DNA of 64,000 nt, taken from the IMG/VR virus record IMGVR_UViG_3300029305_006219; one strand, given 5' to 3'. This DNA is from a virus. A program made the position numbers and the translations under genes. This document shows positions 6,101 to 64,000 of this stretch, piece by piece. The notes below the pieces were generated by a model that ran no database searches, was not told the DNA's origin, and saw only the letters and a program-made list of their open reading frames with translations. Numbering within the stretch: position 1 is the first letter of the stretch; every line of letters starts with the position of its first letter.

Positions 6101-6321
6101 GCTACGACTTTGGTATCGATAAATGAACTAATAAAATCTGTGTAACTTAATTGTTCATCAGCAAATCCATTAAGCTTTGCCATTTCAGTTCCAAATTCAT
6201 CTTGCATTTTGTTATAAGCAGTAACAAAATTTTTCTTTAATTTAACATTAACTTCCATATCTCCAATGATATCCTCCTGTTGTTTGTAAAAATCCTTGAC
6301 AGCATCGAGATATGTTTTCAT
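3184..6321 (-). CDS. nrdD: Anaerobic ribonucleoside-triphosphate reductase NrdD, intein-containing, read through 2 in-frame TAG codons
   Basis: ORFs 4663..6333, 3646..4566 and 3184..3615 are one reading frame separated only by TAG at 4663-4665 and 3646-3648. C-terminus has a CPVCG zinc site and a RIVGFYTP glycyl-radical motif. TGA stop overlaps the nrdG ATG. Confidence 0.85.
4744..5880 (-). mobile_element. Intein (about 379 aa) with LAGLIDADG homing endonuclease domain inside nrdD
   Basis: Starts CYKGEEL and ends ILSHN followed by +1 Cys (CFAYDLKDL, aligning with E. coli NrdD FNC-MLIDLKG). Contains LGMALSEGN and IAGMIDGDGTI dodecapeptide blocks. Confidence 0.7.
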
Positions 6322-6922
6322 GATGTATGCCAAGCTCTTTCTCTGCTTCTGCTAGAGATTTAAAGTTTTGATTTAGCTCCACACAATAAACTGGAGTAAC
6401 TCTTTTATCTTCAGATAGAGGAAGATTATTTGATAAATAATCTTCATAGTATGTCCAATGAAATTTATATGCAGTGTGTAATTTTCCACGACAACACGCA
6501 ATAATATTTGCATTAGCAAAACCCTTTAATCGTTCAATTTCTTTTGCGCTATCAAAAACCTTTTGTGTTTCTAAACATATAATTTTTCTTTTTGTTTTAC
6601 AACTATTACTCATTTTTTGACGAGATTCTCTTGAATATTCATTATTCAATCCGCCACTTTTTATATTATAGCCACTATTCACAGTATCATATTTTGTGAT
6701 AAGTTCTTCTTCTTTTTGATTAGCTTCCTGTAATGTTAAGTTCTCATATAAAATAGTCTATTCAAAATTATCCCATCCATATTTTTCAATAGCATGATAA
6801 AATTTAACACAGCCAGTATAGTTAGAGGGGTGACAGCGACGCGTGATATCTTTAGACTAACCAATATATTTTTTGCCATTTATTTTATTGGTATAACAAT
6901 AAATGCAATATTGATTATCCAT
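6248..6922 (-). CDS. GIY-YIG homing endonuclease (HE1) between nrdH and nrdD, 2 in-frame TAG
   Basis: N-terminus MDNQYCIYCYTNKINGKKYIG[TAG]SKDITRRCHP...YGWDNFE[TAG]TILYENL, then the C-terminus of ORF 6248..6682 with two C-x-x-G...GY.W.Y repeats. TAGs at 6857-6859 and 6758-6760. Confidence 0.8.
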
Positions 6923-8000: not shown

Positions 8001-11000
8001 TCATTCTTCCATATCCTTTCTTTCATGAACTAGTTCCATATCGCGTCCGTTATTAAGCAATGATATTTTATAGATTTGGTGCGTCGGGGTATGCTTATAG
8101 GTCTTGGTTACGAACTGGTCACCACGTTTATAGCCAGTTAAAAGTAGCATCGTTCCTCTCTTAAACCAGCCCTTTTCTGTTATCTTCTTAGATCCATCAT
8201 CCTGAAGCTCCGACAATTGTTTCTTGTACTGCGCATAATATTCCTTCGTAAACTTAACAGTGACAACACCGCTTGGAGTTAATAGAGTAATAGATGCTTT
8301 ATTATCATTTTTTGCGATTACAGTTCCGATAATCTTATGCGTTTTCCAAATCGGAATCTGTTGACCATTGCGCTTGAAATAGTAGTCAACCTCGGGCTCT
8401 TCTGGAAGCGCAAAGAAGTTTGAAATACCATACTTATAGGTGTCAACATTTGCTAACTCATGCTCGTGATAATAGAAACATAGAGACTCCATTTCCCAAG
8501 AGGATAAAGATCCTTGAGCATATTTATTCCAAGTATCCATAAAGAGCTGTGTATTGAGTTGGCGCAAAACCTCACTCTGATTCTCCTTCAACCAATCACG
8601 GGCGCCATCCATCTGTTTCTGATAAATACCGTCCCAAGTCTTTTGTTGAATACAAGTTAATCCATTGATAACTTCAAGTTTTTCAATATCAAAGTGACCT
8701 TTATAGAATTTATCACAAGGTTCATCAAATACAAAGTATTTTCCAACTTTTGTATTTGCTTTGAGATATTTATTAAACTCAAAAACTCTGCGCTCAAAGT
8801 CAAGTGACTCTGGAACCAGACCACGCTGAATAAGTCCGTTAAAGTTCTGCAAAGTTAGTTTACTTTTAGGCTCACAAGCTTTTGATAAATAATATGCCAT
8901 AGCTACGAAACGAGGATGGATATTTAACTCTTTACCCCATTCTGCTTCAAGCTTATCAAAGGCGCCCGCCTTGATAAGAGAAATCATCTGTGTTTTATTA
9001 AGAGGACAGCGCTCCATAAAATCGGCGATATTAGCATACGGTCTGCCGCAAATTATCTGCTCAATAACTTCGCTATTGATTCCGCTTAATGCTTTCATAC
9101 CAAAGAGGATTTGATTATTTTCTACGTCAGGCTTAAAGCTGAATTGAGATTTGTTTATATCAACTAAAGATACATTAATACCAGCGGAAATAATATCTCC
9201 TAAAGCACGAGCAAGTTTTGTATAATCAGTCTGTTTATCTTTTGCCTCTTCATCGTCATCTTCATTGTCATAGCCTTCAAGTGAGCCACTATTAACAATT
9301 AGATTTGCGGTATTCCAATAAATTGGATTCCATCTAGTCGCAGCATACGCAGTCTGGAATCCTATAAATGAATAGGCTAGAGCATGGATTATGGAGAAGG
9401 AATAACCCATCTGGGGTCCAATTCCATGTTTCCATACATAGTGACCCATGCATGGAGAGCTAGCCTGATCAAGAACTTGTTGTTGTAAAGCAGGAATCTT
9501 AGACATTTGCTTTTTTCCGACAATTTTTCTGGCGGCGTTGGCATCTGCAAGGCTAAACCCACAAATCTTGGGATCCATCAACATCTGCATCATCTGCTCC
9601 TGAGAAGGTGGAACACCGTGAGACTTTAAGAAGTAAGGTTTTAATACCTCTTGCTCCTCTTTGGTTAAGCCAAATTCATCCATTTCTTTATACCAAAGGT
9701 TAATATTATTCTTAAAACGAACATACTTTTCCATTGGGGTTTCCTGACCTTTTTCATTTGTCATAAGGCGCATTAAACCATTGGCGTCCGCCAGCTCAAG
9801 GATACTTGATGGACGAATCTTTTTAGCCGCTTGGGCGCCCACATCTGAGTCAAACTGGAAAAGACCTAATACTGCAACATCTTGAATAGGTTTCCAATAC
9901 TTTTCTTCTTCAATAGGAAGAACATTCGGATGAAAATATTTATCATATATCTGGCGCAAGGTCATATCTGACTCTAATTCGCCAGTCTCTTGCAGCATAT
10001 TAATAGTCTCTACGAGTTTGTCTTGTACTTCTGTTACAAGGAAGTCATATTTCACCATTCCAAGTGCCTCACAAGTGTGAAGATCAAATTGCGTTATAAC
10101 TTCACCTTTTGGAGTTCTCATGAATGCGCCAAACTCATATGGATCTTCATCAAATAAAATTACTCCAGATGCGTGAGATGAGCGCTTGTTCTTAAGACCT
10201 TCAATCGAAGTCATAATTTCCAAAAGTCCAGGATAATGATTTACTTCTCGAACGAATGACGCTACTGGTTTACGATCTTTATCTGGGTTACCATTAACAA
10301 CATCATTGATACTCCATAAGAAACCACGCTCTTGCGGAACAAGAGAAGTAAGATACTGCGCCATATCAACATCAATACCGTCCGGATATTCTTCACTACG
10401 ATAGCCGCGGCAAGCGGTCAATATTGCGCTCTTTGTAGTTTCCGTACCAAAAGTTGCAATAAGAGTACAACCTAAGTTTGCGCGAGACAGTTCATCAATA
10501 TCTGTATTAAACTTGGCTCCACGTTCTTCTTTAATTTTCTTAAGAATATAGGGTCTTTTACTTGGACAAAGGTCTAAGTCGATATCACCGAGTTCTACTC
10601 TTTCCTTATTGAGGTAGCGCCAGAAGGGAAGATCCCACTCTATAGGATCAAGCTGGGTAACTCCAAGGAGATAATGGTTTAGGCCTGAGCAGCTTGAACC
10701 ACGACCGGCGCCAACCATAGAACCGCATTCCCAAAAGAGATCAATATAATGCTGAAGAGTGACAGGATATGCAAACATATTTGTTTCCAATTTTTCACTA
10801 ATCGTTCTCTTGATATCTGCTTCTTCTTCAAGTCTGTCGAGATATTGAGAAAATTCAACGATTAAATCATAACTGGTAGCTTTCTTTTTATTTGCCAAAC
10901 TTTCAAAACATTGATTTACCCAATATCGTTCCACCTTATTTTCAGAATTAAATAGACTATTCAAAGTAGGGTAATGTGTACCGATAAAATATTCATCGTC

Positions 11001-25223: not shown

Positions 25224-25700
25224 TTATTGAGCTGTATTTATCAAATCTTTAAGTTCCGTCACAATAAGGTCAAGCGCTTCTGTCTGTTCGCGAGAGCACT
25301 GAGAAACTTTTTGTCCTTTACCAAGATATTTCTCTATGCATTGACTAATACGAGGTTGCCAATAAGTTTTGAATGTTTCTTCGTCGCTTTGAACCGAGAG
25401 GTCTTGAATCATTGAGTTAAACTGCATCATAAGTTCATCGAAATCAAGTTCTTTTGAAACGAATGTATGCAAGTTGGCGCCAGTATCTGTGAAGTATTGA
25501 GTTCCATCCTCAGCCGCCTGTCTATCAATAGCATCTCCTATTGCATTAACAAGAGCATTATAGTTGAAGTCAATATAATCAGGCGTATACTTAAATCTAC
25601 TTCCAGCTACGAAACGAGGAGTTCCGCGCATAAAGAGTTTTGTAGATTTCTCACCAGACTCAGACTCAACAGTTCTCGCATATCCTATTATGTCCTTTAA
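25224..25700 (-). CDS. AAA_24/Sak4-like ATPase, 3' exon (C-terminal part)
   Basis: ORF 25224..25715 continues the ATPase sequence interrupted by the group I intron. The exact 3' splice site is not resolved. Confidence 0.45.
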   Translation of the reverse strand, partial: LKDIIGYARTVESESGEKSTKLFMRGTPRFVAGSRFKYTPDYIDFNYNALVNAIGDAIDRQAAEDGTQYFTDTGANLHTFVSKELDFDELMMQFNSMIQDLSVQSDEETFKTYWQPRISQCIEKYLGKGQKVSQCSREQTEALDLIVTELKDLINTAQ

Positions 25701-26690
25701 TACCCTCTTTTTCAAGATATTTTAATGGGAATAGACTATATCTTCATCCATTTTAAACGGTGGATGTCATGCACTTCGATTTAAAGGATTTTCACCTACT
25801 TTTATATTATTATAAAAGCCCTACTCCTGTTGAGGAAATTTCATCCTCCAGTGGGATAGTCGTTGAACCTTCTCCTATTCGGAGCTTGGCTGCTGATTGC
25901 CCAATTTAATCAATTTTTAACATTCGCACTTAGATTTCTTTCATTCTTATGCTGTAGTTTGATTAACTCTAAGGGGTTTCCAGCAATTCACATGATTTGC
26001 TTAATGGATTGCTCCATTAAGGGCCTTATATATTTCATATTTTCGTCTCAACCGAGAGGCCTCGGTTGAATGTTCATAAATTTTATTTAAAATTTGTACA
26101 ACTGCAGCGCCTTCTTTATGAATTTGATAAGCAGAGGTTCCACAAGGACTTACTTTATTATCAAACTCTAAAATTTCTAGCATTTGTTTTGTGCAGATCT
26201 CAGTTTGACTGACAAAACTTAAACTAGGAATATTGTTTCTATCTTCTCTAATGTGAATACTACCATCTGCATCTAGCAATCCTCTTGCAAAATCATAAAT
26301 ATATTCATTAGGAATGTTTTCAAGGGGAATACTAAAAATAGAGGTTTTTGCAGGTACTATATTATATTGTGCTAAATAACGTTTTAACTCTGCCGAGTTT
26401 ATAGATACAGTTAAAGCATGACATCCAGTGTTATTAGTACGCTCTGTAATGGGCGCATTAGATTCAAAGAATGCTTGTAAATTTTCAAGCTGCTCTCTAT
26501 CTATATCTTTTAACTCAACTCTTACTCTGGCTTCATTTTTAGCTACATTTCCATCTCCAGCTAAAAATCCAAGCCAATAATATTTTTCATGAGGGTCTAT
26601 TTTAATGTTTGTTAAATTTAAAGGATATTTTCTCAAAAAACTTTCAACTCCTTCTTTAAGAGAGCGAAAATATGAAATAAAAATGTTAAG
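25700..26690 (-). mobile_element. Group I intron interrupting the AAA_24 ATPase gene and carrying a LAGLIDADG endonuclease ORF
   Basis: Minus-strand core elements: P-like AATTGCTGG (about 25950), Q-like AATCAGCAGCC (about 25890), R GTTCAACGACTA (25849-25860), S AAGATATAGTCT (25726-25737). Upstream exon ORF ends at a TAA at 26686. Boundaries are approximate. Confidence 0.6.
26001..26636 (-). CDS. Double-motif LAGLIDADG homing endonuclease (intron-encoded)
   Basis: LGFLAGDGNV and ARGLLDADGSI motifs. TTG start with an AAGGAG RBS. Confidence 0.75.
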   Translation of the reverse strand: MRKYPLNLTNIKIDPHEKYYWLGFLAGDGNVAKNEARVRVELKDIDREQLENLQAFFESNAPITERTNNTGCHALTVSINSAELKRYLAQYNIVPAKTSIFSIPLENIPNEYIYDFARGLLDADGSIHIREDRNNIPSLSFVSQTEICTKQMLEILEFDNKVSPCGTSAYQIHKEGAAVVQILNKIYEHSTEASRLRRKYEIYKALNGAIH

Positions 26691-27252
26691 CCATACGGTT
26701 TACAATATTACGAGGTTTATTATCAAGAGTAGGAACAATCTGATTATACTCATTGCCATTTTGATCCTTAAAGGTTTTGTCTTGCGCGTGAGAAATAATT
26801 ACTAAGCCGTATCCTAATTGAAGGATTGAACGAAGCGCGCTATCAAACTCTTGCGCTGCCATTTTGAAGCCCTTTCCGTAACCAATGTCACCGATGCTAT
26901 CGACGCCTATAGAGCCATCTGGACGAACTGCATTGGCGCAAATATATTTCTCACAATAGTCATAGGCTATATCAGCTGTATCAAGGATAATAGTTTCGAA
27001 TCTAGCTTTAACCTGTTCATTCTTTAACTGGCGCAAGAATTTTTTAAACTCAGACCAACTATTAATAGGTTGTGCCATGGCGCCGGGAATTGCATTATAT
27101 CCTTTTTCAAAAGCCGCCAAAAGATGATTAGGGAATTTAGTCGCGGTAGTAGTTTTACCGGTCTTTGCGTCTCCATAGAAGAAGACGCAATAACCGCGCA
27201 TATCTCTTGAAACCTAATGAGGCTAAATATCAAGTAAATTAAAATCTGCCAT
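26690..27252 (-). CDS. AAA_24/Sak4-like ATPase, 5' exon, 2 in-frame TAG
   Basis: MADFNLLDI[TAG]PH[TAG]VSRDMRGYCVFFYGDAKTGKTT (Walker A) ...ISHAQDK. TAGs at 27223-25 and 27214-16. RBS AAAAGAGG. Confidence 0.6.
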
Positions 27253-41062: not shown

Positions 41063-41137
41063 TGGCAGGGGAGGTAGGAATCGAACCTACGTCTGTGGTT
41101 TTAGAGACCACGGTCTTGACCTTTCGACGACTCCCCA
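41063..41137 (-). tRNA. Amber suppressor tRNA, tRNA-Gln-like, anticodon CUA (reads UAG)
   Basis: Minus-strand sequence UGGGGAGUCGUCGAAAGGUCAAGACC GUGGU CUCUAAA ACCAC AGAC GUAGGUUCGAUUCCUAC CUCCCCU G CCA. The anticodon stem is 5 bp Watson-Crick and the loop is CUCUAAA. U1.U72, G2-C71, G3-C70 and the G73 discriminator follow the bacterial tRNA-Gln pattern. It closely parallels the tRNA-Gln(UUG) at 62245-62316. Confidence 0.75.
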
Positions 41138-43601: not shown

Positions 43602-44150
43602 TTAATCATTCTTTTGAATCTCCTTCCAATGCTCAGTAATCTCTTCAATAACTGTATCAAGTAGTACGGGTCTACAATCATGCGCATCCATATTTACGTT
43701 GTAGCAAAAAGAGTGTTCACACCACTTTGAAGTAGAGTGAGTGTGTCCATGTAAATTCCATGTAGCTAACCAACATTTGTCTTTTCCGTTGCCTGTAAGG
43801 GTAGGATAATGGCTAAGATAAAAACTTTTCTTTTTGTATTTTAACCTATATGCAAAATGAACATCGTATCCAAGTTCTTTATATATAGCAATTCGAGTAT
43901 CCGTGCAATGGTTGCCACAAACCACATGAATATGTCCTTTGAGTTGTTTAAGAGCGGCCGCCCCTTTTTCATTATCATTCATCATTAAATCGCCAAGAAT
44001 CCAGACATCATCTTCATGATCAACCAATTCATTCCATCTTTTAATAATTTCTTCGTTCATATGGTCTGGAGAAGTGAATCCTCGTGCTTCCCATACAAAT
44101 GGTTGAATATGGGATAGATGCAAATCGCTAGTTACATATATTTTACCCAT
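43602..44150 (-). CDS. Calcineurin-like metallophosphoesterase (candidate RNA/DNA 3'-phosphatase or 2',3'-cyclic phosphodiesterase)
   Basis: Motifs DLHLSH, GDLMMND, GNHC, GHTH. Confidence 0.65.
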   Translation of the reverse strand: MGKIYVTSDLHLSHIQPFVWEARGFTSPDHMNEEIIKRWNELVDHEDDVWILGDLMMNDNEKGAAALKQLKGHIHVVCGNHCTDTRIAIYKELGYDVHFAYRLKYKKKSFYLSHYPTLTGNGKDKCWLATWNLHGHTHSTSKWCEHSFCYNVNMDAHDCRPVLLDTVIEEITEHWKEIQKND

Positions 44151-44372: not shown

Positions 44373-44849
44373 TCACCACTCTCTAATACGAGTAATTTTA
44401 GTAAAACCTTCATCTCTTGTAGGTGCCTCCATTTGAAAGAACATTCTACGAATGACTCCACGCGGCACTCGTGCGCGCCCTTCGCGCAGTTCGTTTCTTA
44501 TAAGTGCAGTTTCAAGAGGAACCTCTATTACTATTATTTCTATTTCATCTGCAAATTTAGCGACTTTATTAAGAACTTTAGCGCGCGCCTTTTTATTAAG
44601 ATGAGTCGCATCTGCTATTGCAATTTCATCTACTATAAGACTGCCAATAATTTGATAAATAAACTTATCAAAAACTTCATCTTCATAGTCAAAATACTCG
44701 CCGCCTCTTTTATCAAGCAATTCAAAACGAATTGCATCTCTTGATACAGGTATTATATCTGGAAAATTATTTTTTATCCAAGTACTTTTACCAGAACCTG
44801 GAACTCCGCACATCATAATTAATTTACTCATTCTTCTATCTCCTTCCAA
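44373..44849 (-). CDS. P-loop polynucleotide kinase-like protein (AAA_33/Pnk kinase domain)
   Basis: Walker A motif MMCGVPGSGKST, small kinase fold of about 158 aa, adjacent to the phosphoesterase and near the RNA ligase. Confidence 0.5.
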   Translation of the reverse strand: MEGDRRMSKLIMMCGVPGSGKSTWIKNNFPDIIPVSRDAIRFELLDKRGGEYFDYEDEVFDKFIYQIIGSLIVDEIAIADATHLNKKARAKVLNKVAKFADEIEIIVIEVPLETALIRNELREGRARVPRGVIRRMFFQMEAPTRDEGFTKITRIREW

Positions 44850-46143: not shown

Positions 46144-47580
46144 TTATTCTTCAGTAACCTCTTGAGCCTCTTCCATATCAGGTGCGGCGGCCTCGGCTTT
46201 GACCAGCCCTTCTAGACACTTGAAACTAAAGTTCTTGTGTTTGTATGCGGCGAACTTAGGTCTATTGATTATACGCACAACTACTCCTTCACGGACATGG
46301 GTCTTTCCAATAGGATCGGCGCCATCATAAAATTCTTCTGCAATCTTCATTACAAGGTCACCAAGAGTCATTCCCTCTTTAAGAAGATAATCGTGATCAT
46401 AGCCATCGGGTGCTACAAAATGCGCGCGATCAGCGCTTAATATAACTTTTCCAAATACAGGCACAGTCTTAACCCCCATCTGCTCGCAACGGTAACGCAT
46501 GAGGTCAGGAGTGTACTCGACTATCTCACCATCCTCGTTAGTCATTGTCATACGGTAAACATAGATGTCTGACTGAGGGATGCTATAATCTATAGTGGGC
46601 ATGACGTTAGGTTCATCATATTCAGTAACTTTAAAACCAAAAGGCTCGCATCCATAGGAGAAACGAGTAATCTCGCCATACTGCTTGATGAATTCCTTAT
46701 CATTAAGCTTCTTGTTAGAAGCATCACCCATGATAGGAGCACCATTGGTTGTGAATCCTACTACTTCATAGTAGACCGTTTCTCCTTTATTCAGCTTATC
46801 CTCGAATATTTTAGAGTGTTGTTCACGAAACTCGTTACTTCCGTAAAAACCGCCATCATAATTTTCAAGAACTACGCGGCGGGTGCCAGAAACATAACCC
46901 CAATCATAAATAGGAGTGCCTTCCTTGCGAGTAAGCTTCTTCCAAAAGCTGCGCTTATATCCTTTAAGAGTAGGTAGACATCCTGTTCTTTGACTAGTTC
47001 CATGCATCTTAAGCGTGATCTCAATTTCATCACCTACTTTAAAAGCGCCGAGATTATATGCCAACTGCTCAGTATCCGCATGCTCTTTGAAGAGAGGTGC
47101 AGTAGGAACTTTCTTTTTACGAGTTCTATTGCCTTCAGTTACAGTACCGCGGCGAATGTTGGTACGAGGTATATACTTGCAGCAGATTTCGTGTCCGTTA
47201 ACTAGACCATCAATTATATCTCCAGCTTTAAGATGAGCGGCGGCCGCCCCATCCTCAAAGCAATAGTCAAGCGCTGATAGAGGAAGGAAAAGACCGTCAC
47301 TCTTCTCACTGCGCAGACGAATTGCGGTTACATTTCTTTTATCTGGGTCCATGTATCCACCAATCTGGTTTCCTGCATCATCTTTCTTACGGAGTAGGTT
47401 ATTATGCTCAGCAAATTCTACCGATACCTGACCATCAGTGGGTAGATAAATACCCACTTGACCTTCAAAATAGCTAGTGGATACGCATACGGTATTACCA
47501 AAGCAATCTCCAAGAAGCAGTCTATCTGCATTAGGATGCTTACGCACATTTTTCAGTGTAGTTATATATGCTTTATACAT
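46144..47580 (-). CDS. ATP-dependent RNA ligase (Rnl2-like nucleotidyltransferase) with N-terminal tRNA-binding (Myf/CsaA-like OB) domain
   Basis: N-terminal KHPNADRLLLGDCFGNTVCV resembles the tRNA-binding OB-fold motif. LKMHGTSQRTG matches the KxHGT(N/S) motif I of Rnl2-type ligases. 478 aa. Confidence 0.6.
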   Translation of the reverse strand: MYKAYITTLKNVRKHPNADRLLLGDCFGNTVCVSTSYFEGQVGIYLPTDGQVSVEFAEHNNLLRKKDDAGNQIGGYMDPDKRNVTAIRLRSEKSDGLFLPLSALDYCFEDGAAAAHLKAGDIIDGLVNGHEICCKYIPRTNIRRGTVTEGNRTRKKKVPTAPLFKEHADTEQLAYNLGAFKVGDEIEITLKMHGTSQRTGCLPTLKGYKRSFWKKLTRKEGTPIYDWGYVSGTRRVVLENYDGGFYGSNEFREQHSKIFEDKLNKGETVYYEVVGFTTNGAPIMGDASNKKLNDKEFIKQYGEITRFSYGCEPFGFKVTEYDEPNVMPTIDYSIPQSDIYVYRMTMTNEDGEIVEYTPDLMRYRCEQMGVKTVPVFGKVILSADRAHFVAPDGYDHDYLLKEGMTLGDLVMKIAEEFYDGADPIGKTHVREGVVVRIINRPKFAAYKHKNFSFKCLEGLVKAEAAAPDMEEAQEVTEE

Positions 47581-54999: not shown

Positions 55000-57480
55000 T
55001 TATTCTTTTGAAGCCTCTACAATATTTTTCATTGTTTTCTCAAGGCTGGTTCCACGAAGCAGAGTGTTCCATGTCTCAGCGAGAGATTCACCCTTAGCCA
55101 TAGCGGCAGGCGCGAGGTTTTTGCCAAGTCCATTCATAATCTCTGCATTTGCCTGAGACTCAAGTGCTGCTACAAGATCAGGGCTAATTGCCGCAAATAT
55201 CTTAGCAACGTTGTCTGCATATGCCTTCTGTTTTGCTTCTTCTATTGCAGCAAGCTGCTTCTCAGTTGCGATCTTGGCATCATCTGCCGCCTTATCACGA
55301 GCAAGCTGTGCTTTCTGAATTGCATCGAAGATAGGCTGCATATCAGACTTGGCAGTAGCTTCAGCTGTTGCCTCAGCACGCTTCATAGCGGCGATCTCCG
55401 CCTGATTCTTTAGCTTTTCTTCTTCAGCCTTCTGGTTAAGCTCAAGCGCATACATCTTATTCTGGTGATTAAGTTCTGCCTCTTCACGATCGAATTTAGC
55501 AATCTGCTTAACCATTTCAGATTTACGAGTAGCATCAGAGAGTTCAAGAGTTTTCTGAATCATTTCCTTCTGGTGTGCTTCCATCATCTTAGCGACTTGC
55601 GCCTCAACCTGAACATTGAGAACTTCAACATCAGTTACAAGCATACCATTTTCTTTAAAGAGTCTTCCGTTATGAGGCGCCTGATCAGTTTCTGCTTTAG
55701 CTACATTGCCAAGCGCAGTGTTTCTGATGATGTCTGCCGCTTTTGCGTAGAACTCTTCAATATTATACTTCTTAGCTTCGCGCTTAAGGAGACTGCGCAT
55801 TCTGTCACACATATGTTTTACATAGTTATCTACAGAGAACCACTTATCCTTATATTCGGGAAGGAAGTTTACATTATAGGAGAGAAGGAACTTAACATCA
55901 ACAAAGTCCTTTGTCTGAACACTGATGATATCAGATACCTTATTATTGTCAATACGGAGATATGCAGTCTGAATCAGATTGTCTGTTGTCTTAGGCTTAC
56001 CTGTTGAAAGATTTACAATTTCAAGAGTCTCATCATACTCAAGGAGTCGAGTAGCAGGACCAATGATTGTCTCTCTCTTACCAGACTTGGATACAACATT
56101 TACTGCATAGCCAGTCCATACATTGATAGCAACAACTCCATCATACTTTGTATCAAGCACAATAGTACGAGGCTTTGTATAAGATACACCGCGCGAAATA
56201 TTAGCGGTTGCCGCAAAAATCGCAAGAGCATCATTTTGATTTGCAGTGCTATATGCATTATTAATTATGTCTGTCTTGTTAGACTTACCATTGCGCGCAT
56301 CGCGCTCAGCCTTTGCTTCAGAAAGACCGAGGTTATATTCAAGCGCCTCACGGTTGCCAGGATAGAAAGTTTCGCACTCCTTAACAGAAAGTACTCTCTT
56401 AACAACTACCTCAAAACGAGGATCAGGAAGATACATAGCGGGACCCTTGACCATCTTAACAGTTCCCTTAATTCTATCAAGGATATAGCGTCCTTCGCCC
56501 TCAGGAATTGCTATTGCATGATGCATATACTTACCGTCATACTGAATAAGTGCGTGCTCAGGGCGAGGATAGTAAATCATCTGATTATTACCTGTAATAA
56601 AGAGTTCTTCGCCAACAGGATGCTTAACTCCATTCTCTGTATATTCTGCGATAACCTTTACATAAATACCGCTAATAGGCGAAAGTTCAAGTGCGCGGAA
56701 TATTACGCCCTTCTGAGGGGTCTGTACGAAGGTCTGTGTAGGTGTAGGGAATACAACCTTGGGTCCATGAGCATAGACCTTTTCACCGTTTTCATCTTTA
56801 AGGATACAATACTCAAGGCGCTCAAGGGTGACTGCATCGCGCACATACTCAGAAGAGTTATCTTCACAAGCGAGAACTTCAATACCCGTAGGAGGAATAT
56901 AGAAAGATACTTCAGTACCCTTGATTACAAGTTGCTGACCTGTAAAGTAGGTCTCTTTCTTAACGATCTCTTTACCTTCTGCATCGAGAATAGTTGCGGA
57001 AGCAGCGTTCTTGGCGGCTGCCACTGCGTCATAAACGCGAGCAATGAGGTACTGGTTAGAACGAAGCTTATGTCCTCGAATAACTTTTGCCATCTGACCA
57101 GGGAATAGCGCAAAGGAAGCAGGTCCAGAAATATTAACCTTAATACCAATTTTCATATTATCGGGAGTAACATTCGACTTACCTGCAAGAGGGTATACAC
57201 CATCTGCCGTAGGGTTCTTGAGAATCACATACCAACCCTCGGGCGCCGATACAAATAGCTGTTTTGCTCGCTCGAAGTCTTTTACTTCATCGAATTTCTT
57301 TGTCTTATTGTTGAAAATAACACAAGTCTGCTGCTGAGAAATAGTTACCATAGCAGGTCCTGCATAGGTTCTAATCTCACCGTTAGTGCAGTCCTGAATC
57401 TGGACGTATTCATTGACTGCAAGTACAAGGTCGCGTGTGCGACCTCTATTGTCATTTGCATTGTAATTAAAATCATTCAT
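55000..57480 (-). CDS. Large flotillin/MVP-like SPFH-domain coiled-coil protein (function unknown, possibly structural)
   Basis: 826 aa. C-terminal Ala/Glu/Lys-rich coiled coil typical of the flotillin/YqiK C-terminus. No TAG. Confidence 0.35.
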   Translation of the reverse strand: MNDFNYNANDNRGRTRDLVLAVNEYVQIQDCTNGEIRTYAGPAMVTISQQQTCVIFNNKTKKFDEVKDFERAKQLFVSAPEGWYVILKNPTADGVYPLAGKSNVTPDNMKIGIKVNISGPASFALFPGQMAKVIRGHKLRSNQYLIARVYDAVAAAKNAASATILDAEGKEIVKKETYFTGQQLVIKGTEVSFYIPPTGIEVLACEDNSSEYVRDAVTLERLEYCILKDENGEKVYAHGPKVVFPTPTQTFVQTPQKGVIFRALELSPISGIYVKVIAEYTENGVKHPVGEELFITGNNQMIYYPRPEHALIQYDGKYMHHAIAIPEGEGRYILDRIKGTVKMVKGPAMYLPDPRFEVVVKRVLSVKECETFYPGNREALEYNLGLSEAKAERDARNGKSNKTDIINNAYSTANQNDALAIFAATANISRGVSYTKPRTIVLDTKYDGVVAINVWTGYAVNVVSKSGKRETIIGPATRLLEYDETLEIVNLSTGKPKTTDNLIQTAYLRIDNNKVSDIISVQTKDFVDVKFLLSYNVNFLPEYKDKWFSVDNYVKHMCDRMRSLLKREAKKYNIEEFYAKAADIIRNTALGNVAKAETDQAPHNGRLFKENGMLVTDVEVLNVQVEAQVAKMMEAHQKEMIQKTLELSDATRKSEMVKQIAKFDREEAELNHQNKMYALELNQKAEEEKLKNQAEIAAMKRAEATAEATAKSDMQPIFDAIQKAQLARDKAADDAKIATEKQLAAIEEAKQKAYADNVAKIFAAISPDLVAALESQANAEIMNGLGKNLAPAAMAKGESLAETWNTLLRGTSLEKTMKNIVEASKE

Positions 57481-59989: not shown

Positions 59990-61100
59990 GAGGGCGCTTA
60001 AGATTGTCAATTGAATTTCCTGTGGAGTAGTTAATTGTATCCACACTTTTCCCAACCCTACCAAGTACTATCTCTTGCGAGACCGTGCAAACGGCTTCTT
60101 TTGACAGAGCGCTGTGTTTGGGGCAGAGGCTCTCTTAAGCATTATTATAGATTAACTTGATATTTGCGCAGTGATCACCTGATTCCTGCTCCTATTGATC
60201 TTTTCCGAAGGTGCGACCTTCGCACAGTTCTGCATATCAAGTGAAAATGGGAAGAAACGAAGACCTTTCCCGTAGTCCTCGTTTAGCGACACTAACGGAT
60301 TTCCAAGGGCGGAATGTGTCAGTTACCCGAGCTTATGACCCAGCCACAGAGGTTTGTCAGAGTATGCTCTCCGCAACACTTTTGCATCTTCAAATGTCGA
60401 CGACTTACAGGCGTGCGCCGCCTTGTCTCAGAAAGGAGGTGAGACTATAATTGAAGAAATTAGTCGCTTTTAAGGCTCACAGCGTCGCCACGAGAAGGCT
60501 TTCTTCTTGACGCCATATGGAGCACCTGATTGGATTTGGACCAATGTGGACAGAGTCTCGCGCTTACAAGGCGCGTGCAATCGACCGCTATGCGACAGGT
60601 GCATATATTAAAGAGGTGACAGCTTTAGGTCAGCCAACCGCTCATTGTTTTCTTTTGGGCGTGGTATTTGCTTACCATCCTCAATTCGAGTAAATAACCG
60701 TTTCATCTTTCAATCTACATCTGGCTTAGACATTTTTAATTGGTCTACCAGAACCTCGCCACATCCTCGGCGCCAATCGCACCCTACTTATTTCACCGTA
60801 GCTACTCTTCGGGTGGACGAAATCCACGATTTTCTCGGCATTTGATTTCAGTTTATTTTCGTGGGCGCTCTCTCAAGCCTACTCTGGATTATCCAGCAGT
60901 ATTCGCCTCAAAATACTCAATGAAATCAAGGTTATTCACTTATAGATAAACTTTTCATCAATATTAAGGATATTATAACACTGGCATTTATCAATCCCTG
61001 TTATAAAAACCCTGACACTTTTGTGCTCGTGCTGCGAGGTCAGCTCGTGGTTAGCACTCTTATAATCCTGAATGCTCCAGAAGTCATCTACATTTGCTCA
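59990..61100. ncRNA. GC-rich non-coding block between tRNAs; candidate large structured RNA (GOLLD/ROOL-like?)
   Basis: About 1.1 kb with no ORF over 80 aa in any frame even with TAG treated as sense. GC content is clearly above the flanking genes, and there are many local hairpins. No family could be assigned from sequence alone. Confidence 0.25.
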
Positions 61101-61512: not shown

Positions 61513-62163
61513 TTAATCAGCCTACCATTTCCAAATGAAACCATAAGCAGATTTTCTAATTCCATTTGCACACTCTCGAATGTGCGTTGAAATACCTTTT
61601 ACTTTCACTGAAGATGTTAAATTATTATCTATTAAATACTGAGAAGCATCTGTTAAAGAAGAAAAACTTTGAATATATTCATTAGTTTTTTTATCAAACA
61701 TTTTTACAGCTTTGCTAAACAACTCTTTATTAATTGTTTGAGCAGTTTTTAATACGCCTCCTCGTTGATGAATAACAATATATACGCTATCTACTGAAAT
61801 ATTTAATTTTTTTGCCACTTCTGTTGCATTTTGCAAAACTTCATAAGTGGAATAGATTAAATCATAATCTAAATAACGTTTTCCATCTCCTCCTAAAGTA
61901 GCATTATAACCATTTTTAAATGATTGTTTTTTCTCAATCCAAAAGATTTCTCTTTCAGAAGGATTATCTGTTTCTTCAAGCAATTCTATATGAAAATGTT
62001 CAATTCCATATTTGTTTATTGCTCGATATAAAGGACGATCCTTGCATCTTTCCTTTTGATAATCACTACAATGCTCTTTCCAACGTTTTTCTATAGACTT
62101 TTCTGTTTTACCAATGTATATTTTACCATTTATATCATTGGTAATTTGATAAATGTATGCCAT
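61513..62163 (-). CDS. GIY-YIG homing endonuclease (HE6) in the tRNA cluster, 1 in-frame TAG near the C-terminus
   Basis: MAYIYQITNDINGKIYIGKT...R..H...NGYNATLGGDG...; C-terminal CANGIRKSAYGFIWKW[TAG]AI then TAA. RBS AAAGGAG. Confidence 0.75.
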
Positions 62164-62244
62164 ATTTAAATAGCTCCTTTTTATACTTATTATCAACTTT
62201 TAGCTTAACCCATCGCACACCACGTGGAGGTAGTTGATTAAGTG

Positions 62245-62316
62245 CGACCTGGGGTGGCTGGATTTGAACCAGCGGGTGTCAGAGTCAAAGTCTGATGCCT
62301 TGCCACTTGGCTACAC
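62245..62316 (-). tRNA. tRNA-Gln (UUG)
   Basis: UGGGGUG...anticodon loop CUUUGAC...GCUGGUUCAAAUCCAGC CACCCCA G. U1-A72 and G73. CCA is not encoded. Confidence 0.8.
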
Positions 62317-62561
62317 CCCAATAATATCTTAATTACATTAACTAATAGGAGTGATTTGCACTATTCCAAAGGCGATTACTCAACCTTCCTCCTTTAATCT
62401 TGTACAAGATTTGTGAACAACCTAAGTTACCGTTTCACTACGGAGTTAATGTTATTACGATTAGCGACCCCTTTCGGGCAATTTTGAATCGAGAATTTGT
62501 TGATGGAAACTCAGGTCAGGAGTTTATATTGCATCGCTTTATTTCTTACATATATATTATA

Positions 62562-63003
62562 TCATAAATTTTTTAGAAAATCAATTAATCGATAATTTTC
62601 TACCAAATTTATCCCTTTAGTTTGATTATTTTTTGGAGGATCTTGTCTAAAAGTAATTACTTTTTTAGTACCAATTTCTTCAATTGGCAGAATAAGAATT
62701 TCATTCCATTCTACGATATAAAAACAAAAATAATCTATGTCATTCTCGTAAGTGCTATAATGTTTATTGGTAGTATGGTTTGTACTGCTTGCACAAGGAC
62801 AGGCAATAGAATTATTTTCAGTAATTTGTTGATTACAATACTTTACTTGAATACGATTTAATTTTCCATTAAACTCTGCTATCAAATCATAACGAGCATT
62901 ATCTCCAAAAGGGATTGCTACCTAAATGTTATTTTTAACAAATTCAGCAAGTACAACTGCCTCACCAATATTGCCTTTATCTTTACTATTCATATTACTC
63001 CTT
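62562..63003 (-). CDS. PD-(D/E)xK (Hjc/endonuclease-like) nuclease, 1 in-frame TAG
   Basis: MNSKDKGNIGEAVVLAEFVKNNI[TAG]VAIPFGDNARYDLIAEFNGKLNRIQVKY continues into ORF 62562..62885. TAG at 62932-34. RBS AGAAGGAG. It is immediately adjacent to the interrupted tRNA-Lys. Confidence 0.45.
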
Positions 63004-63007
63004 CTTA

Positions 63008-63161
63008 TGGTGAGCCAAGCGAGATTCGAACTCGCGACCCCGTGATTAATGGTGCTTGAGGTTAGATTCGAACTAACAACCTAAAGCCGACTAAGCCCCA
63101 GACTTTACCAATTAAACATACTCAAACAAGTCACGTGCTCTTCCATCTGAGCTACTGGCTC
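63008..63161 (-). tRNA. tRNA-Lys (UUU) interrupted by a 78-nt insertion in the anticodon loop
   Basis: Exon parts GAGCCAG UA GCUC AGAUGGAA GAGC A CGUGA CUU | 78-nt insert | UUAA UCACG GGGUC GCGAGUUCGAAUCUCGC UUGGCUC A CCA. After removal of the insert the sequence closely resembles E. coli tRNA-Lys and the loop reads CUUUUAA. Confidence 0.6.
63050..63127 (-). other. tRNA-like insertion element (acceptor/T-arm minihelix with encoded CCA) inside the tRNA-Lys anticodon loop
   Basis: GUUUGAG...GUUAG UUCGAAU CUAAC CUCAAGC A CCA. The 7-bp acceptor pairing and T-arm are perfect. No canonical anticodon arm could be folded. Confidence 0.45.
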
Positions 63162-63169
63162 ATATAATT

Positions 63170-64000
63170 ATTTACTTAGTTAGCTTTTTGAATAGCTCTA
63201 TATTTTCGCTTGAGTTTATTGATTATATTTCCATTAGCGGCATCGCGCTAAAGAATACTAATACGATTAAGTATTGCAAGTTCTCTATTTATCATTTTGC
63301 TTTATTTCCTTTCTTATCTTTATTACATAAATATTATATCATATTTTTTAATAAAAATCAATGAAAACCTTTGGAGTTTGCTTTTGCCTAATGGTGGTTA
63401 GGACAAAAGCTCTCTGCAACTCATTTTTCTTTGCTACGAGTAAACACAATAGATTGATAGGTTTTTACTAAGCTACCTTCAAACTTAATGGTGGAGAATA
63501 TGAGTAACGATCTCATCTGAACTTCTGCTTGCAAAGCAGACGACCACTCCATGCAGTCCCATTCCCCATAGGAAAGAGAGGGAGAGTTTTTATATCCAAC
63601 AAGAGAATCACTCTCCAAACTCTGATGTTTTACGAGGCGCCGAGTAATGCTTGTTGGCAGCATCAAGGCGTTGATTTAAAATGGCAGAAAATGTCGGTGC
63701 TGCCCCGCTACTCCGCATCCCAAATGCGGTGTGTTACTGTTACACTACATTCTCTATATTCCAGCTTTTAGATGCGGGAAGCTGGGCCCGCGCCTTTCAT
63801 AGCCTTGTTGGATAAACCTGCGCTATTACTAAGCTATCTTTATAAATCTCGCACTTCATCTTGGAGGCGAAACTCCAGCGGATGTTTGGCCCACCGCTGC
63901 CTTTCGGATATAAGTCTCACCGAGTATAACCAGCACTGTTTATATAGCGTCTGCCGCCTCGCTCTCTACTCTCTCTGTTGATTAGGTGAGAGGAATATCC
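63170..64000. ncRNA. GC-rich non-coding block at the window end; candidate structured RNA
   Basis: No convincing ORF, high GC relative to the phage genes, and contiguous with the tRNA cluster. ORFs 63421..63666 and 63529..63981 look spurious. Confidence 0.2.

Follow-up and report, generated by a model that had tools for sequence, protein, structure and literature searches.

The virus record IMGVR_UViG_3300029305_006219 of the IMG/VR database includes, in a stretch of 64,000 nucleotides (nt) that is referred to here as the window, a tRNA-Lys(UUU) gene whose anticodon loop is interrupted by a 78-nt element with the shape of a tRNA. Judged from its sequence, this insert is a member of a family of tRNA-shaped introns that reside in tRNA genes of large, mostly gut-derived phages. 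The pathway towards which we lean is one in which the tRNA-shaped intron would be cut out by RNase P and a 3′ endonuclease, and the exons would be joined by an RNA ligase of the phage. The broader proposition, that the family constitutes an unrecognised class of phage introns excised by the cell's own tRNA end-maturation enzymes and joined by the phage ligase, has in our estimate about an even chance of being correct.

The split tRNA-Lys(UUU) gene

The gene consists of two exons and the insert:
63008–63161, minus strand: whole nested gene, a 154-nt tRNA-Lys(UUU) precursor with encoded CCA (sequence, Rfam tRNA, ARAGORN -i)
63128–63161, minus strand: 5′ exon, comprising the 5′ strand of the acceptor stem, the D arm, the 5′ strand of the anticodon stem (CGUGA), and loop nucleotides C32, U33, and U34 (direct reading)
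63050–63127, minus strand: 78-nt tRNA-shaped intron, corresponding to positions 1–76 of a tRNA-like element (Rfam tRNA, and the family rule k + t = 11, which is explained below)
63008–63049, minus strand: 3′ exon, comprising loop nucleotides U35, U36, A37, and A38, stem strand UCACG, the variable loop, the T arm, the acceptor strand, A73, and CCA (direct reading)

A preliminary description of the sequence had proposed a complete tRNA-Lys(UUU) with its loop split into CUU, 78 nt, and UUAA. All of the elements and coordinates that it named are confirmed, and the gene is assigned to the minus strand. The 5′ exon reads, from 63161 to 63128, GAGCCAG UA GCUC AGAUGGAA GAGC A CGUGA CUU, and the 3′ exon reads, from 63049 to 63008, UUAA UCACG GGGUC GCGAG-UUCGAAU-CUCGC UUGGCUC A CCA. 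The anticodon loop CUU/UUAA is interrupted after U34. Removal of the 78 nt in silico produces a 76-nt molecule that ARAGORN calls tRNA-Lys(UUU) with the loop CUUUUAA. The spliced outer tRNA has a seven-nucleotide loop with U33 and a purine at position 37, seven of seven acceptor pairs, five of five T-stem pairs, and A73. Its predicted exon–exon junction is ...GAGCACGUGACUU/UUAAUCACGGGG..., or GATGGAAGAGCACGTGACTT/TTAATCACGGGGTCGCGAG when written as a 40-mer, and the intron-less tRNA-Lys DNA sequence corresponding to the window gene would be GAGCACGTGACTTTTAATCACGG.

The tRNA model of Rfam (RF00005) bridges the insert (63011–63161, 50.1 bits against a gathering score of 29, E = 9.5e-8 in the 64-kb window); the outer gene is aligned to model positions 1–71, with an 81-nt insertion placed in the anticodon loop. 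ARAGORN at default settings does not report the tRNA-Lys gene. When introns are allowed, it finds a 78-nt intron with a boundary that is off by 1 nt and labels the tRNA Thr(UGU), an assignment that we reject on the basis of A73, the tRNA body, and the boundary rule of the family. U73 is the discriminator of the tRNA-Thr(UGU) that the phage itself encodes and of three nested Thr genes from other loci, and A73 is present in all ten nested Lys genes. The discriminator base and the tRNA body therefore identify the outer tRNA as Lys and not Thr. Thermodynamic folding of the 154-nt precursor was uninformative (z = -1.75).

The insert has the sequence GUUUGAG UA ... GUUAG-UUCGAAU-CUAAC CUCAAGC ACCA. 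Its acceptor stem is a perfect helix of seven base pairs (63127–63121 with 63060–63054), its T arm is canonical (63077–63061), and the ACCA tail occupies 63053–63050. The D arm is present. The anticodon arm is degenerate, and its best stem, GGGGC/GCUUU, contains three G–U pairs and carries the loop UUAGUCG with C37. Direct reading thus bears out the earlier account of an insert with an acceptor stem, a T arm, and ACCA that lacks a canonical anticodon arm, as does ARAGORN, which accepted no tRNA when it was run on the insert. A covariance scan against Rfam, which had been named as a check, places the insert by itself narrowly above the tRNA threshold (63053–63127, 31.4 bits against 29, E = 1.2e-3 in 6 kb, a marginal match) and matched the insert to no known ribozyme family at E ≤ 10.

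Contigs found through the neighbouring GIY-YIG protein (61522–62163) were looked up in public assemblies, which yielded nine contigs from different samples. Four of the nine span the gene, and all four contain the identical 154 nt (L025–L028, from Joint Genome Institute (JGI) samples 3300031555, 3300024272, 3300018475, and 3300023371), while two further contigs terminate inside the insert with identical sequence. Since the same 154 nt occur in four independent JGI assemblies, the assembly error against which the preliminary description had warned is excluded. An artefact of assembly or of a chimeric join can be dismissed with near certainty in view of these four assemblies, the two consistent contig ends, and the presence of the same architecture in about 28 unrelated contigs. 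L025, which forms the end of a contig of 135 kb, continues the tRNA array past the window end.

A family of nested tRNA genes

IMG/VR was scanned for two T loops positioned 25–45 nt apart, a spacing that tandem tRNAs cannot have but that the nesting of one tRNA in the anticodon loop of another would produce. A structural detector looked for an inner acceptor stem and T arm, a flanking outer anticodon stem, and an outer T arm and acceptor stem, with the offsets left free. The allowed offsets were 0–9 loop nucleotides (k) ahead of inner position +1 and 0–14 nucleotides (t) from inner position 72 to the outer stem. In all 20 independent solutions the sum of k and t is 11; the few others are either the same genes in a slipped register or due to chance. 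For the window gene, k = 3 and t = 8, and the tail is ACCA.

A wider pipeline required no T-loop sequence and kept only candidates whose spliced product was called by ARAGORN with its anticodon at the splice junction. This pipeline yielded 34 unique nested tRNAs, corresponding to about 31 genes on about 28 contigs, most of which are viral contigs of 90–240 kb. In every one of the 34, the insert is exactly positions 1–76 of the inner element, and its excision leaves a seven-nucleotide loop and an intact tRNA. As a control, the tail after inner position 72 was set to 0, 1, 2, 3, 4, 5, 6, or 7 nt, and the numbers of validated genes were 0, 0, 1, 1, 34, 0, 0, and 0, respectively, from similar numbers of candidates. 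The family of nested tRNA-shaped introns is defined by a 7-bp acceptor stem, a 5-bp T stem, a 7-nt T loop, and a 4-nt N73-NNA tail, by a position after nucleotide 34, 35, or 36, and by a removal that results in a valid tRNA; the window insert falls within this definition. An independent census relied on the intron mode of ARAGORN only, applied to 111 loci that had been fetched without T-loop patterns. Most of the predictions are misjoined tandem tRNAs; the 12 that have seven of seven acceptor pairs and five of five T-stem pairs at the intron ends are nested genes. One further prediction is, by its size and motifs only, an apparent group I intron. The probability of such in-register pairing arising by chance is about 7e-5 per intron.

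The host tRNAs are Lys-UUU (10 cases), Leu-UAA (5), Thr-UGU (3), Gln-UUG (3), Asn-GUU (3), Ile-GAU (2), Ile-UAU (2), and Arg-UCU (2), together with single cases of Leu-UAG, Pro-UGG, Glu-UUC, and Gly-UCC. Insertion is after nucleotide 34 in 21 nested tRNAs, after nucleotide 35 in 11, and after nucleotide 36 in 2. The inserts are 45–135 nt long and begin with G (27) or C (7); the base that precedes them is U in 28 of 34. Their last four bases are NCCA in 29 of 34, ACAA in three, ACGA in one, and ACCC in one. The acceptor stem of seven base pairs, the T arm, and the four-nucleotide tail are always kept, the D arm is usual, and the anticodon arm varies, is degenerate, or is missing. At 45–49 nt, the smallest inserts are bare minihelices of acceptor stem and T arm, and 19 of 20 inner elements tested were not recognised as tRNAs by ARAGORN. 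A close relative of the window insert, from L035, shares its acceptor stem but measures 58 nt and has no anticodon arm, which is therefore dispensable in this intron lineage. Canonical inner tRNAs occur in two loci, a tRNA-Phe(GAA) in a tRNA-Arg(UCU) (L269, 2337–2489, IMGVR_UViG_3300018427_000032) and a tRNA-Gly(UCC) in a tRNA-Asn(GUU) (L241, 2123–2273, IMGVR_UViG_3300011008_000009). In these cases one nested gene may yield two functional tRNAs.

The outer tRNAs have complete acceptor stems (7/7) in all 34 cases and complete T stems (5/5) in 33, neither of which was required by the detector. The discriminator bases fit the predicted anticodons: A73 in ten of ten Lys, U73 in three of three Thr, G73 in three of three Asn, and U73 in Gly. 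The phage of the window has a second nested gene, a type II tRNA-Leu(UAA) with the loop CUU/AAAA (L025, 7246–7437), about 0.7–0.9 kb past the high-coordinate end of the window. Its insert is 103 nt long (GUUGGCU...AGUCAGC-ACCA) and scores 34.8 bits with the Rfam tRNA model. In the window plus L025, the nested Lys and the nested Leu(UAA) genes encode the only tRNAs seen for the codons AAA and UUA, which, with frequencies of 48.7 and 24.5 per 1000, are among the most used in this AT-rich phage. The outer tRNAs look selected and functional.

The preliminary description had suggested a search of other phage genomes, which now supplies the 34 nested tRNAs of the same design, with related inserts in Lys, Gln, and Leu genes. 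One genome each of 185,579 bacterial and archaeal species gave 33 pattern matches, of which one is a true nested case. This single case outside the viral data lies on a 12.6-kb phage-like contig with the same kinase family (see below), and the nested family is essentially confined to phages. A metagenome scan for the intron lineage of the window returned one contig, L365, which is a duplicate of the Leu-UAA case in L224. The exact junction of the insert and the 3′ exon of the window gene had no match in IMG/VR, and a BLAST comparison of the locus with 50,697 GenBank phage records gave generic tRNA fragments only and no cultured phage with a nested gene. The pattern of a tRNA-Lys with a 60–90-nt gap had 20 matches, all of which are ordinary tandem tRNA pairs. 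A probable degenerate nested tRNA-Leu(UAA) at L053 (3942–4074, IMGVR_UViG_3300022602_003246) was missed by the strict filters; six of its seven inner acceptor pairs are formed, its tail is CCGU and not NCCA, and k + t = 11. The locus also contains a polynucleotide-kinase homologue.

RNA-repair genes

The window encodes three proteins of RNA repair:
46144–47580, minus strand: ATP-dependent RNA ligase, Rnl2/Rnl5-like, candidate exon ligase (PHROG 968 'RNA ligase', E = 1.5e-56)
44373–44849, minus strand: polynucleotide 5′-kinase with P-loop GVPGSGKST, RNA end healing (PHROG 505, E = 6e-20)
43602–44150, minus strand: metallophosphoesterase with motifs DxH...GD...GNH...GHTH (PHROG 547 'phosphoesterase', E = 1.6e-42)

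The RNA ligase that had been noted some 16 kb from the tRNA is the gene at 46144–47580, 15.4 kb off, identified by its match to PHROG 968. Features read in its sequence are an N-terminal OB module of the tRNA-binding type (HPNADRL) and a motif I of the Rnl2/Rnl5 type (LKMHGTS). It matches the Pfam family RNA_ligase with E = 2e-4, and its best match among the chains of the PDB, T4 Rnl2, has an E value of only about 0.8. The kinase also matches the kinase region of bacterial Pnkp in NCBIfam (E = 5.6e-12) and AAA_33 in Pfam. The phosphoesterase is a candidate healing enzyme for 2′,3′-cyclic phosphate or 3′-phosphate ends.

Repair genes also accompany nested tRNAs in other phages. A ligase homologue with 67% identity is located 3.6 kb from the nested tRNA of L035. 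In the fetched flanks, of which up to 10 kb per locus were compared, a fusion of a kinase with an HD phosphohydrolase or a ligase was found in 4 of 21 nested and in 2 of 232 non-nested loci (Fisher p = 4.8e-4). L053, which belongs to these two non-nested loci, is likely a degenerate nested gene itself. The kinase–HD fusion near the nested tRNAs is related to the window kinase. An 'RNA ligase, DRB0094 family' is 140-fold enriched in recoded gut phages that have tRNA-linked ribozymes resembling that of hepatitis delta virus (HDV), and its role there is unsettled (Kienbeck et al. 2024, PMC10879173). Joining the exons of nested tRNAs would give ligases of the DRB0094 type a concrete function.

Proposed splicing pathway

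The precursor would fold into two tRNA-like domains, with the outer tRNA body keeping the exons together. The inner element would be treated like a tRNA of a polycistronic precursor, and a cut by RNase P at its position +1 would leave a 3′-OH on U34. An endonuclease would then cut right after A76 of the inner element. Candidates are an enzyme of the RNase Z/BN type, whose cut after A76 would leave a 5′-phosphate on the 3′ exon, or another enzyme of the phage or the host. The phage RNA ligase would join U34 to U35 and thereby generate the seven-nucleotide loop CUUUUAA. If the 3′ cut gave a 5′-OH, the polynucleotide kinase and the phosphoesterase would heal the ends before ligation. Splicing, the enzymes that cut, the ligation, and the use of the product in translation are what we infer from the gene and its relatives.

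The cut sites appear to be set by the inner tRNA-like fold, because the boundaries track inner positions +1 and 76, while the distances to the outer anticodon stem vary within the family (3–5 nt at one site and 2–4 nt at the other). The parts of the insert that are conserved, namely the acceptor stem, the T arm, and NCCA, match the known minimal substrate of RNase P and of tRNA 3′-end processing. The inner elements are degenerate with fixed boundaries and the outer tRNAs are intact, which argues for selection on excision. An exonuclease would destroy the 3′ exon or never release it; therefore, a precise endonucleolytic cut after A76 is required. The preliminary description had envisaged that the insert is processed as a tRNA and that the tRNA halves are ligated. 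The boundary rule in the 34 nested tRNAs, the minihelix inserts, and the enrichment of repair genes lend this scheme strong indirect support; however, its '3′ trimming' cannot be exonucleolytic. Among enzymes that encounter an encoded CCA, the RNase Z of T. maritima and the RNase BN of E. coli cut after it.

Several considerations weigh against the proposed pathway. The likely hosts are Bacillota or Bacteroidota, for which we know of no enzyme that makes an endonucleolytic cut precisely behind an encoded CCA. RNase Z is inhibited by CCA in many bacteria, where exonucleases finish the precursors that encode it. Ligases of the DraRnl type have been characterised on nicked duplexes and not on breaks in anticodon loops. 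The similarity of the window ligase to NCBIfam TIGR02306 (DRB0094) is partial (residues 9–197, 35.7 bits against a cut-off of 151, E = 4.4e-9), and its single-sequence structure model is unusable, with a predicted local distance difference test score (pLDDT) of 31. A kinase and a phosphatase are needless for the products of RNase P and RNase Z, and the enrichment of their genes hints at other chemistry in at least one of the cuts; alternatively, the two enzymes may serve tRNA ends made by ribozymes. The enrichment of repair genes near nested tRNAs could be a lineage effect. In principle, the exact 1–76 boundaries might reflect the route of insertion rather than that of removal.

Comparison with known introns and tRNA-processing systems

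The tRNA-shaped intron is rated as lying outside the known intron classes. A group I intron was rejected because there is no match to RF00028, the model of the catalytic P3–P8 core, at E ≤ 10 in 62950–63250, and the insert is 78 nt long, as opposed to the usual length of more than 200 nt. The same library finds a true group I intron at 25713–26068 with 78 bits. An intron with a bulge–helix–bulge (BHB) motif, which places the splice sites in two bulges of 3 nt on either side of a 4-bp helix, was rejected on direct reading: the helix at both sites is the 7-bp inner acceptor stem, and the 3′ site is located 4 nt beyond the helix. No EndA-like domain was found among the 40 open reading frames (ORFs) of the window that were scanned with Pfam. 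The Rfam scan and the direct reading thus agree with the initial view that the insert is neither a group I nor a BHB intron. Full-text literature searches, which covered few subscription journals, returned no description of tRNA-shaped introns in tRNA genes.

Protein-spliced introns of archaea and eukaryotes (BHB introns, processed by EndA or TSEN together with RtcB or Trl1) resemble the phage intron in their location in the anticodon region, in the cutting by enzymes and joining by a ligase that is proposed here, and in the tRNA body that holds the exons together. By contrast, the phage insert lacks a BHB motif, and the sites used range from 34/35 to 36/37 instead of being mainly 37/38. It is the intron's own tRNA-like fold that would be recognised, and other nucleases and an ATP-dependent ligase for 3′-OH and 5′-phosphate ends are proposed. 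Furthermore, the phage introns reside in viruses of bacteria, from which protein-dependent tRNA splicing is, to our knowledge, not known.

Group I introns of bacterial, plastid, and phage tRNA genes, such as tRNA-Leu(UAA) split between U34 and A35, share with the phage inserts the kind of host gene, the site 34/35, the patchy presence, and the association with homing endonucleases. However, the window insert has 78 nt (45–135 nt in the family) and no group I core, and self-splicing cannot be assumed for it. Locus L297 (IMGVR_UViG_3300021400_000113) contains a tRNA-Leu(UAA) at 1845–2120 with a 198-nt intron after U34 that is group I-like by size and motifs only, as well as two tRNA-shaped introns (639–761 and 9989–10179) and a kinase homologue. 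Both types of intron therefore appear to coexist in one phage.

A further parallel is found in phage T4, in which PrrC, Pnkp, and Rnl1 likewise involve tRNA-Lys(UUU), a break beside the wobble base, and a phage kinase, phosphatase, and RNA ligase that reseal the anticodon loop. However, the break in T4 infection is made by a host defence nuclease in the mature host tRNA, whereas the gap described here is encoded in a phage gene. In addition, the window ligase is not of the Rnl1 family, and the window enzymes are separate polypeptides. The proposed recruitment of RNase P and a 3′-end endonuclease by a tRNA-like fold is shared with the tRNA punctuation of mitochondria, the t-elements of plant mitochondria, and the mascRNA of MALAT1; by contrast, the RNAs that flank these elements stay unjoined, and none of the elements is inside another tRNA. 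Discontinuous tRNAs are restored at the RNA level by cutting and ligation, as is proposed here, in the case of the split and permuted tRNA genes of Nanoarchaeum equitans, Caldivirga, and Cyanidioschyzon merolae. These, however, use leader and trailer BHB motifs and EndA, and the intervening RNA is not tRNA-like. Recoded gut phages with theta (HDV-like) ribozymes are similar to the window phage in TAG recoding, large tRNA arrays, ribozymes (putative in the window) at tRNA 3′ ends, and a ligase that in the window resembles the DRB0094 type in part (PMC10879173). The study of these phages, whose text does not contain the word 'intron', found neither introns nor nested tRNAs, and it proposed for the ligase a function akin to aminoacylation (Kienbeck et al. 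2024).

The adjacent endonuclease and the persistence of the intron

Two features flank the tRNA-Lys gene on the same strand:
62562–62993, minus strand: free-standing gene of the PD-(D/E)XK homing-endonuclease family PDDEXK_5 (Pfam PF11645, E = 3.4e-33)
63333–63361, minus strand: promoter-like site TTGATT-17-TATAAT with TG, upstream of the 5′ end of the tRNA by some 170 nt (consensus scan, 10/12)

The PD-ExK nuclease gene that had been described as abutting the tRNA corresponds to PF11645. The match has 115 bits against a cut-off of 26.1 and covers residues 1–136 of 143 when TAG is read as sense. The gene has the ribosome-binding site AAGGAG, an ATG located 14 nt after the CCA of the tRNA, and an in-frame TAG at 62922–62924. 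It is positioned downstream of the tRNA and not inside the 78-nt insert, and is thus not intron-encoded. The neighbour was considered as the splicing nuclease and rejected, since its family is one of DNA homing enzymes, is absent from most nested loci, and occurs beside intron-less tRNAs. A selfish neighbour is likelier than a splicing enzyme. The promoter-like site is a possible start of a transcript of tRNA-Lys and PDDEXK_5; the evidence is weak, since the count of such sites is not above that in shuffled sequences.

A tentative explanation of how the intron persists, which is compatible with splicing, is collaborative homing, in which the intron would break the target of the adjacent endonuclease and the endonuclease would cut the intron-less alleles of co-infecting phages. 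The PDDEXK_5 gene begins just 14 nt past the tRNA, and I-Ssp6803I, the founding member of the family, targets the anticodon-loop DNA of a tRNA gene. Genes of PDDEXK_5 or HNH endonucleases flank the nested tRNAs in L123, L269 (two copies), L254, L180, L163, and L168, and no such endonuclease was found in 36 intron-less Lys loci with the same anticodon arm. However, PDDEXK_5 is also located beside ordinary intron-less tRNAs in six other loci, which may mean that tRNA arrays are endonuclease hot spots, and many nested loci have no endonuclease within 1.5 kb. A role of the abutting nuclease in collaborative homing is plausible but unproven.

Alternative fates of the insert

The insert might be removed by another route, in which a dedicated endoribonuclease or an unrecognised ribozyme generates 5′-OH and 2′,3′-cyclic phosphate ends that are healed and sealed as in the repair by T4 Pnkp and Rnl1. 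This route, which we regard as unlikely, would give a function to the kinase and phosphoesterase genes that adjoin the ligase gene in the window, and to the kinase–HD phosphohydrolase fusion, which is the most enriched family near nested tRNAs and is needless for the products of RNase P and RNase Z. Cyclic-phosphate chemistry would already be in use at tRNA 3′ ends, where a putative HDV-like ribozyme abuts tRNA-Gln, and the insertion sites from 34/35 to 36/37 coincide with sites that known anticodon nucleases cut. However, no candidate endonuclease is common to the nested loci, the insert matches no known ribozyme family at E ≤ 10, and its conserved features are exactly those read by tRNA end-processing enzymes. 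The healing enzymes may serve only ribozyme-made tRNA ends or counter-defence.

It is improbable, more so than removal by another route, that the gene is dead and not spliced, having been hit by a mobile tRNA-like element or a tRNA copy, with the 1–76 ends as a record of the insertion (for example, of a mature tRNA that was ligated in and copied to DNA). The insert is polymorphic in its presence, since intron-less tRNA-Lys genes with the same anticodon arm occur in 36 viral contigs, including L299, with a tRNA almost identical to the L035 exons, and L310, from a relative of the window phage. L310 and L254 are one contig, the ligase of which is 72% identical. Related inserts (GUYUGAG...CUCARGC-ACCA) in Lys, Gln, and Leu genes imply mobility. 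The patchy presence and the related inserts together indicate that the element comes, goes, and changes its host gene, and selfish elements abound in the phage, which has an intein, a group I intron, and endonucleases of the GIY-YIG, LAGLIDADG, and PD-(D/E)XK types. Nevertheless, the 34 outer tRNAs have kept intact acceptor and T stems and identity-matched discriminators despite wide divergence, direct reading found no target-site duplications, and there is no reverse transcriptase among the window ORFs scanned. Apart from the nested genes, no tRNA gene for Lys(UUU) or Leu(UAA) was seen in the array, and the phage makes heavy use of the corresponding codons. The shrinkage of inner elements to minihelices with exact boundaries is what selection for excision predicts.

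That the inner element is the functional product, with the outer halves serving only as a scaffold for folding and processing, is highly improbable: two loci do contain a canonical inner tRNA, and engineered 'tRNA scaffolds' stabilise RNAs placed in a tRNA anticodon loop, but the inner anticodon arm of the window is degenerate and that of the L035 insert absent, all but one of the 20 inner elements tested were not recognised as tRNAs, and a scaffold leaves the rule of the seven-nucleotide loop and the kept identity elements of the outer tRNAs unexplained.

Implications of the proposed pathway

Introns other than self-splicing ones are not known from the tRNA genes of bacteria and their viruses, and enzyme-catalysed tRNA splicing is regarded as archaeal and eukaryotic. 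If excision by tRNA end-maturation enzymes and joining by the phage ligase are correct, the family would represent a new class of introns, the ends of which are the ends of a mature tRNA, and the first tRNA splicing pathway of the bacterial world that depends on proteins or ribonucleoproteins. Universal tRNA-processing enzymes would double as splicing endonucleases. The maturation of key phage tRNAs (Lys-UUU, Leu-UAA, and others) would hang on a phage gene, which could serve as a timing switch or in counter-defence. The pathway would also account for the RNA ligase with a module of the tRNA-binding type that is present in many large gut phages with recoding, and for which PMC10879173 gave no settled explanation. 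The design of cutting by RNase P and a 3′ nuclease and rejoining by a ligase could be used as a device in RNA engineering. Since tRNA finders miss or misname nested genes, the tRNA repertoires of phages, and the conclusions on codon usage and recoding that are drawn from them, are incomplete.

Genomic context

The window corresponds to the part of a large phage genome that is devoted to replication and tRNAs, and it encodes DnaB, a primase-like protein, RecJ, an NAD-dependent DNA ligase, gyrase A and B, RNase H, and a sigma factor. A suppressor tRNA(CUA), labelled 'Pyl' by ARAGORN, is located at 41063–41137 (minus strand). Together with the in-frame TAG of the PDDEXK_5 gene, it indicates that TAG is reassigned to sense; lists of ORFs based on translation table 11 therefore split some genes.

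A match to the HDV-like (theta-type) ribozyme family RF02682 at 62181–62248 (minus strand) has 37 bits, which is below the gathering score of 44. It starts 1 nt after tRNA-Gln(UUG) (62249–62320), the sole tRNA of the window array without an encoded CCA. A weaker CPEB3-like match at 60452–60526 (minus strand) is positioned just 3′ of tRNA-Thr. These putative ribozymes fit the published tRNA 3′-processing by theta ribozymes in recoded gut phages (PMC10879173). Another tRNA-like sequence at 63686–63754 (minus strand) has an anticodon loop of Pro(UGG), UUUGGGA, scores 35.7 bits with Rfam, and was missed by ARAGORN. Its T arm is replaced by a hairpin CGG-GGCAGCA-CCG, and GGCAGCA also takes the place of the T loop in the intron minihelix of L318. 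The T arm of the neighbouring tRNA-Ala (63489–63567) is odd too.

The group I intron at 25713–26068 (minus strand, RF00028) is associated with a LAGLIDADG ORF (26001–26636, minus strand) and apparently splits a protein-coding gene, with flanking ORFs at 25224–25715 and 26686–27201. An ORF with an intein-like splicing domain (4663–6333, minus strand) is located beside a fragment of anaerobic ribonucleotide reductase, NrdD (3646–4566, minus strand), and this arrangement probably represents an nrdD gene interrupted by an intein. The gene at 55000–57480 (minus strand) encodes an 826-residue protein that, unusually for a phage, has a shoulder domain of the major vault protein (PF11978, E = 6e-26) together with a Vault_3 repeat; the protein is identical on contigs of several samples.

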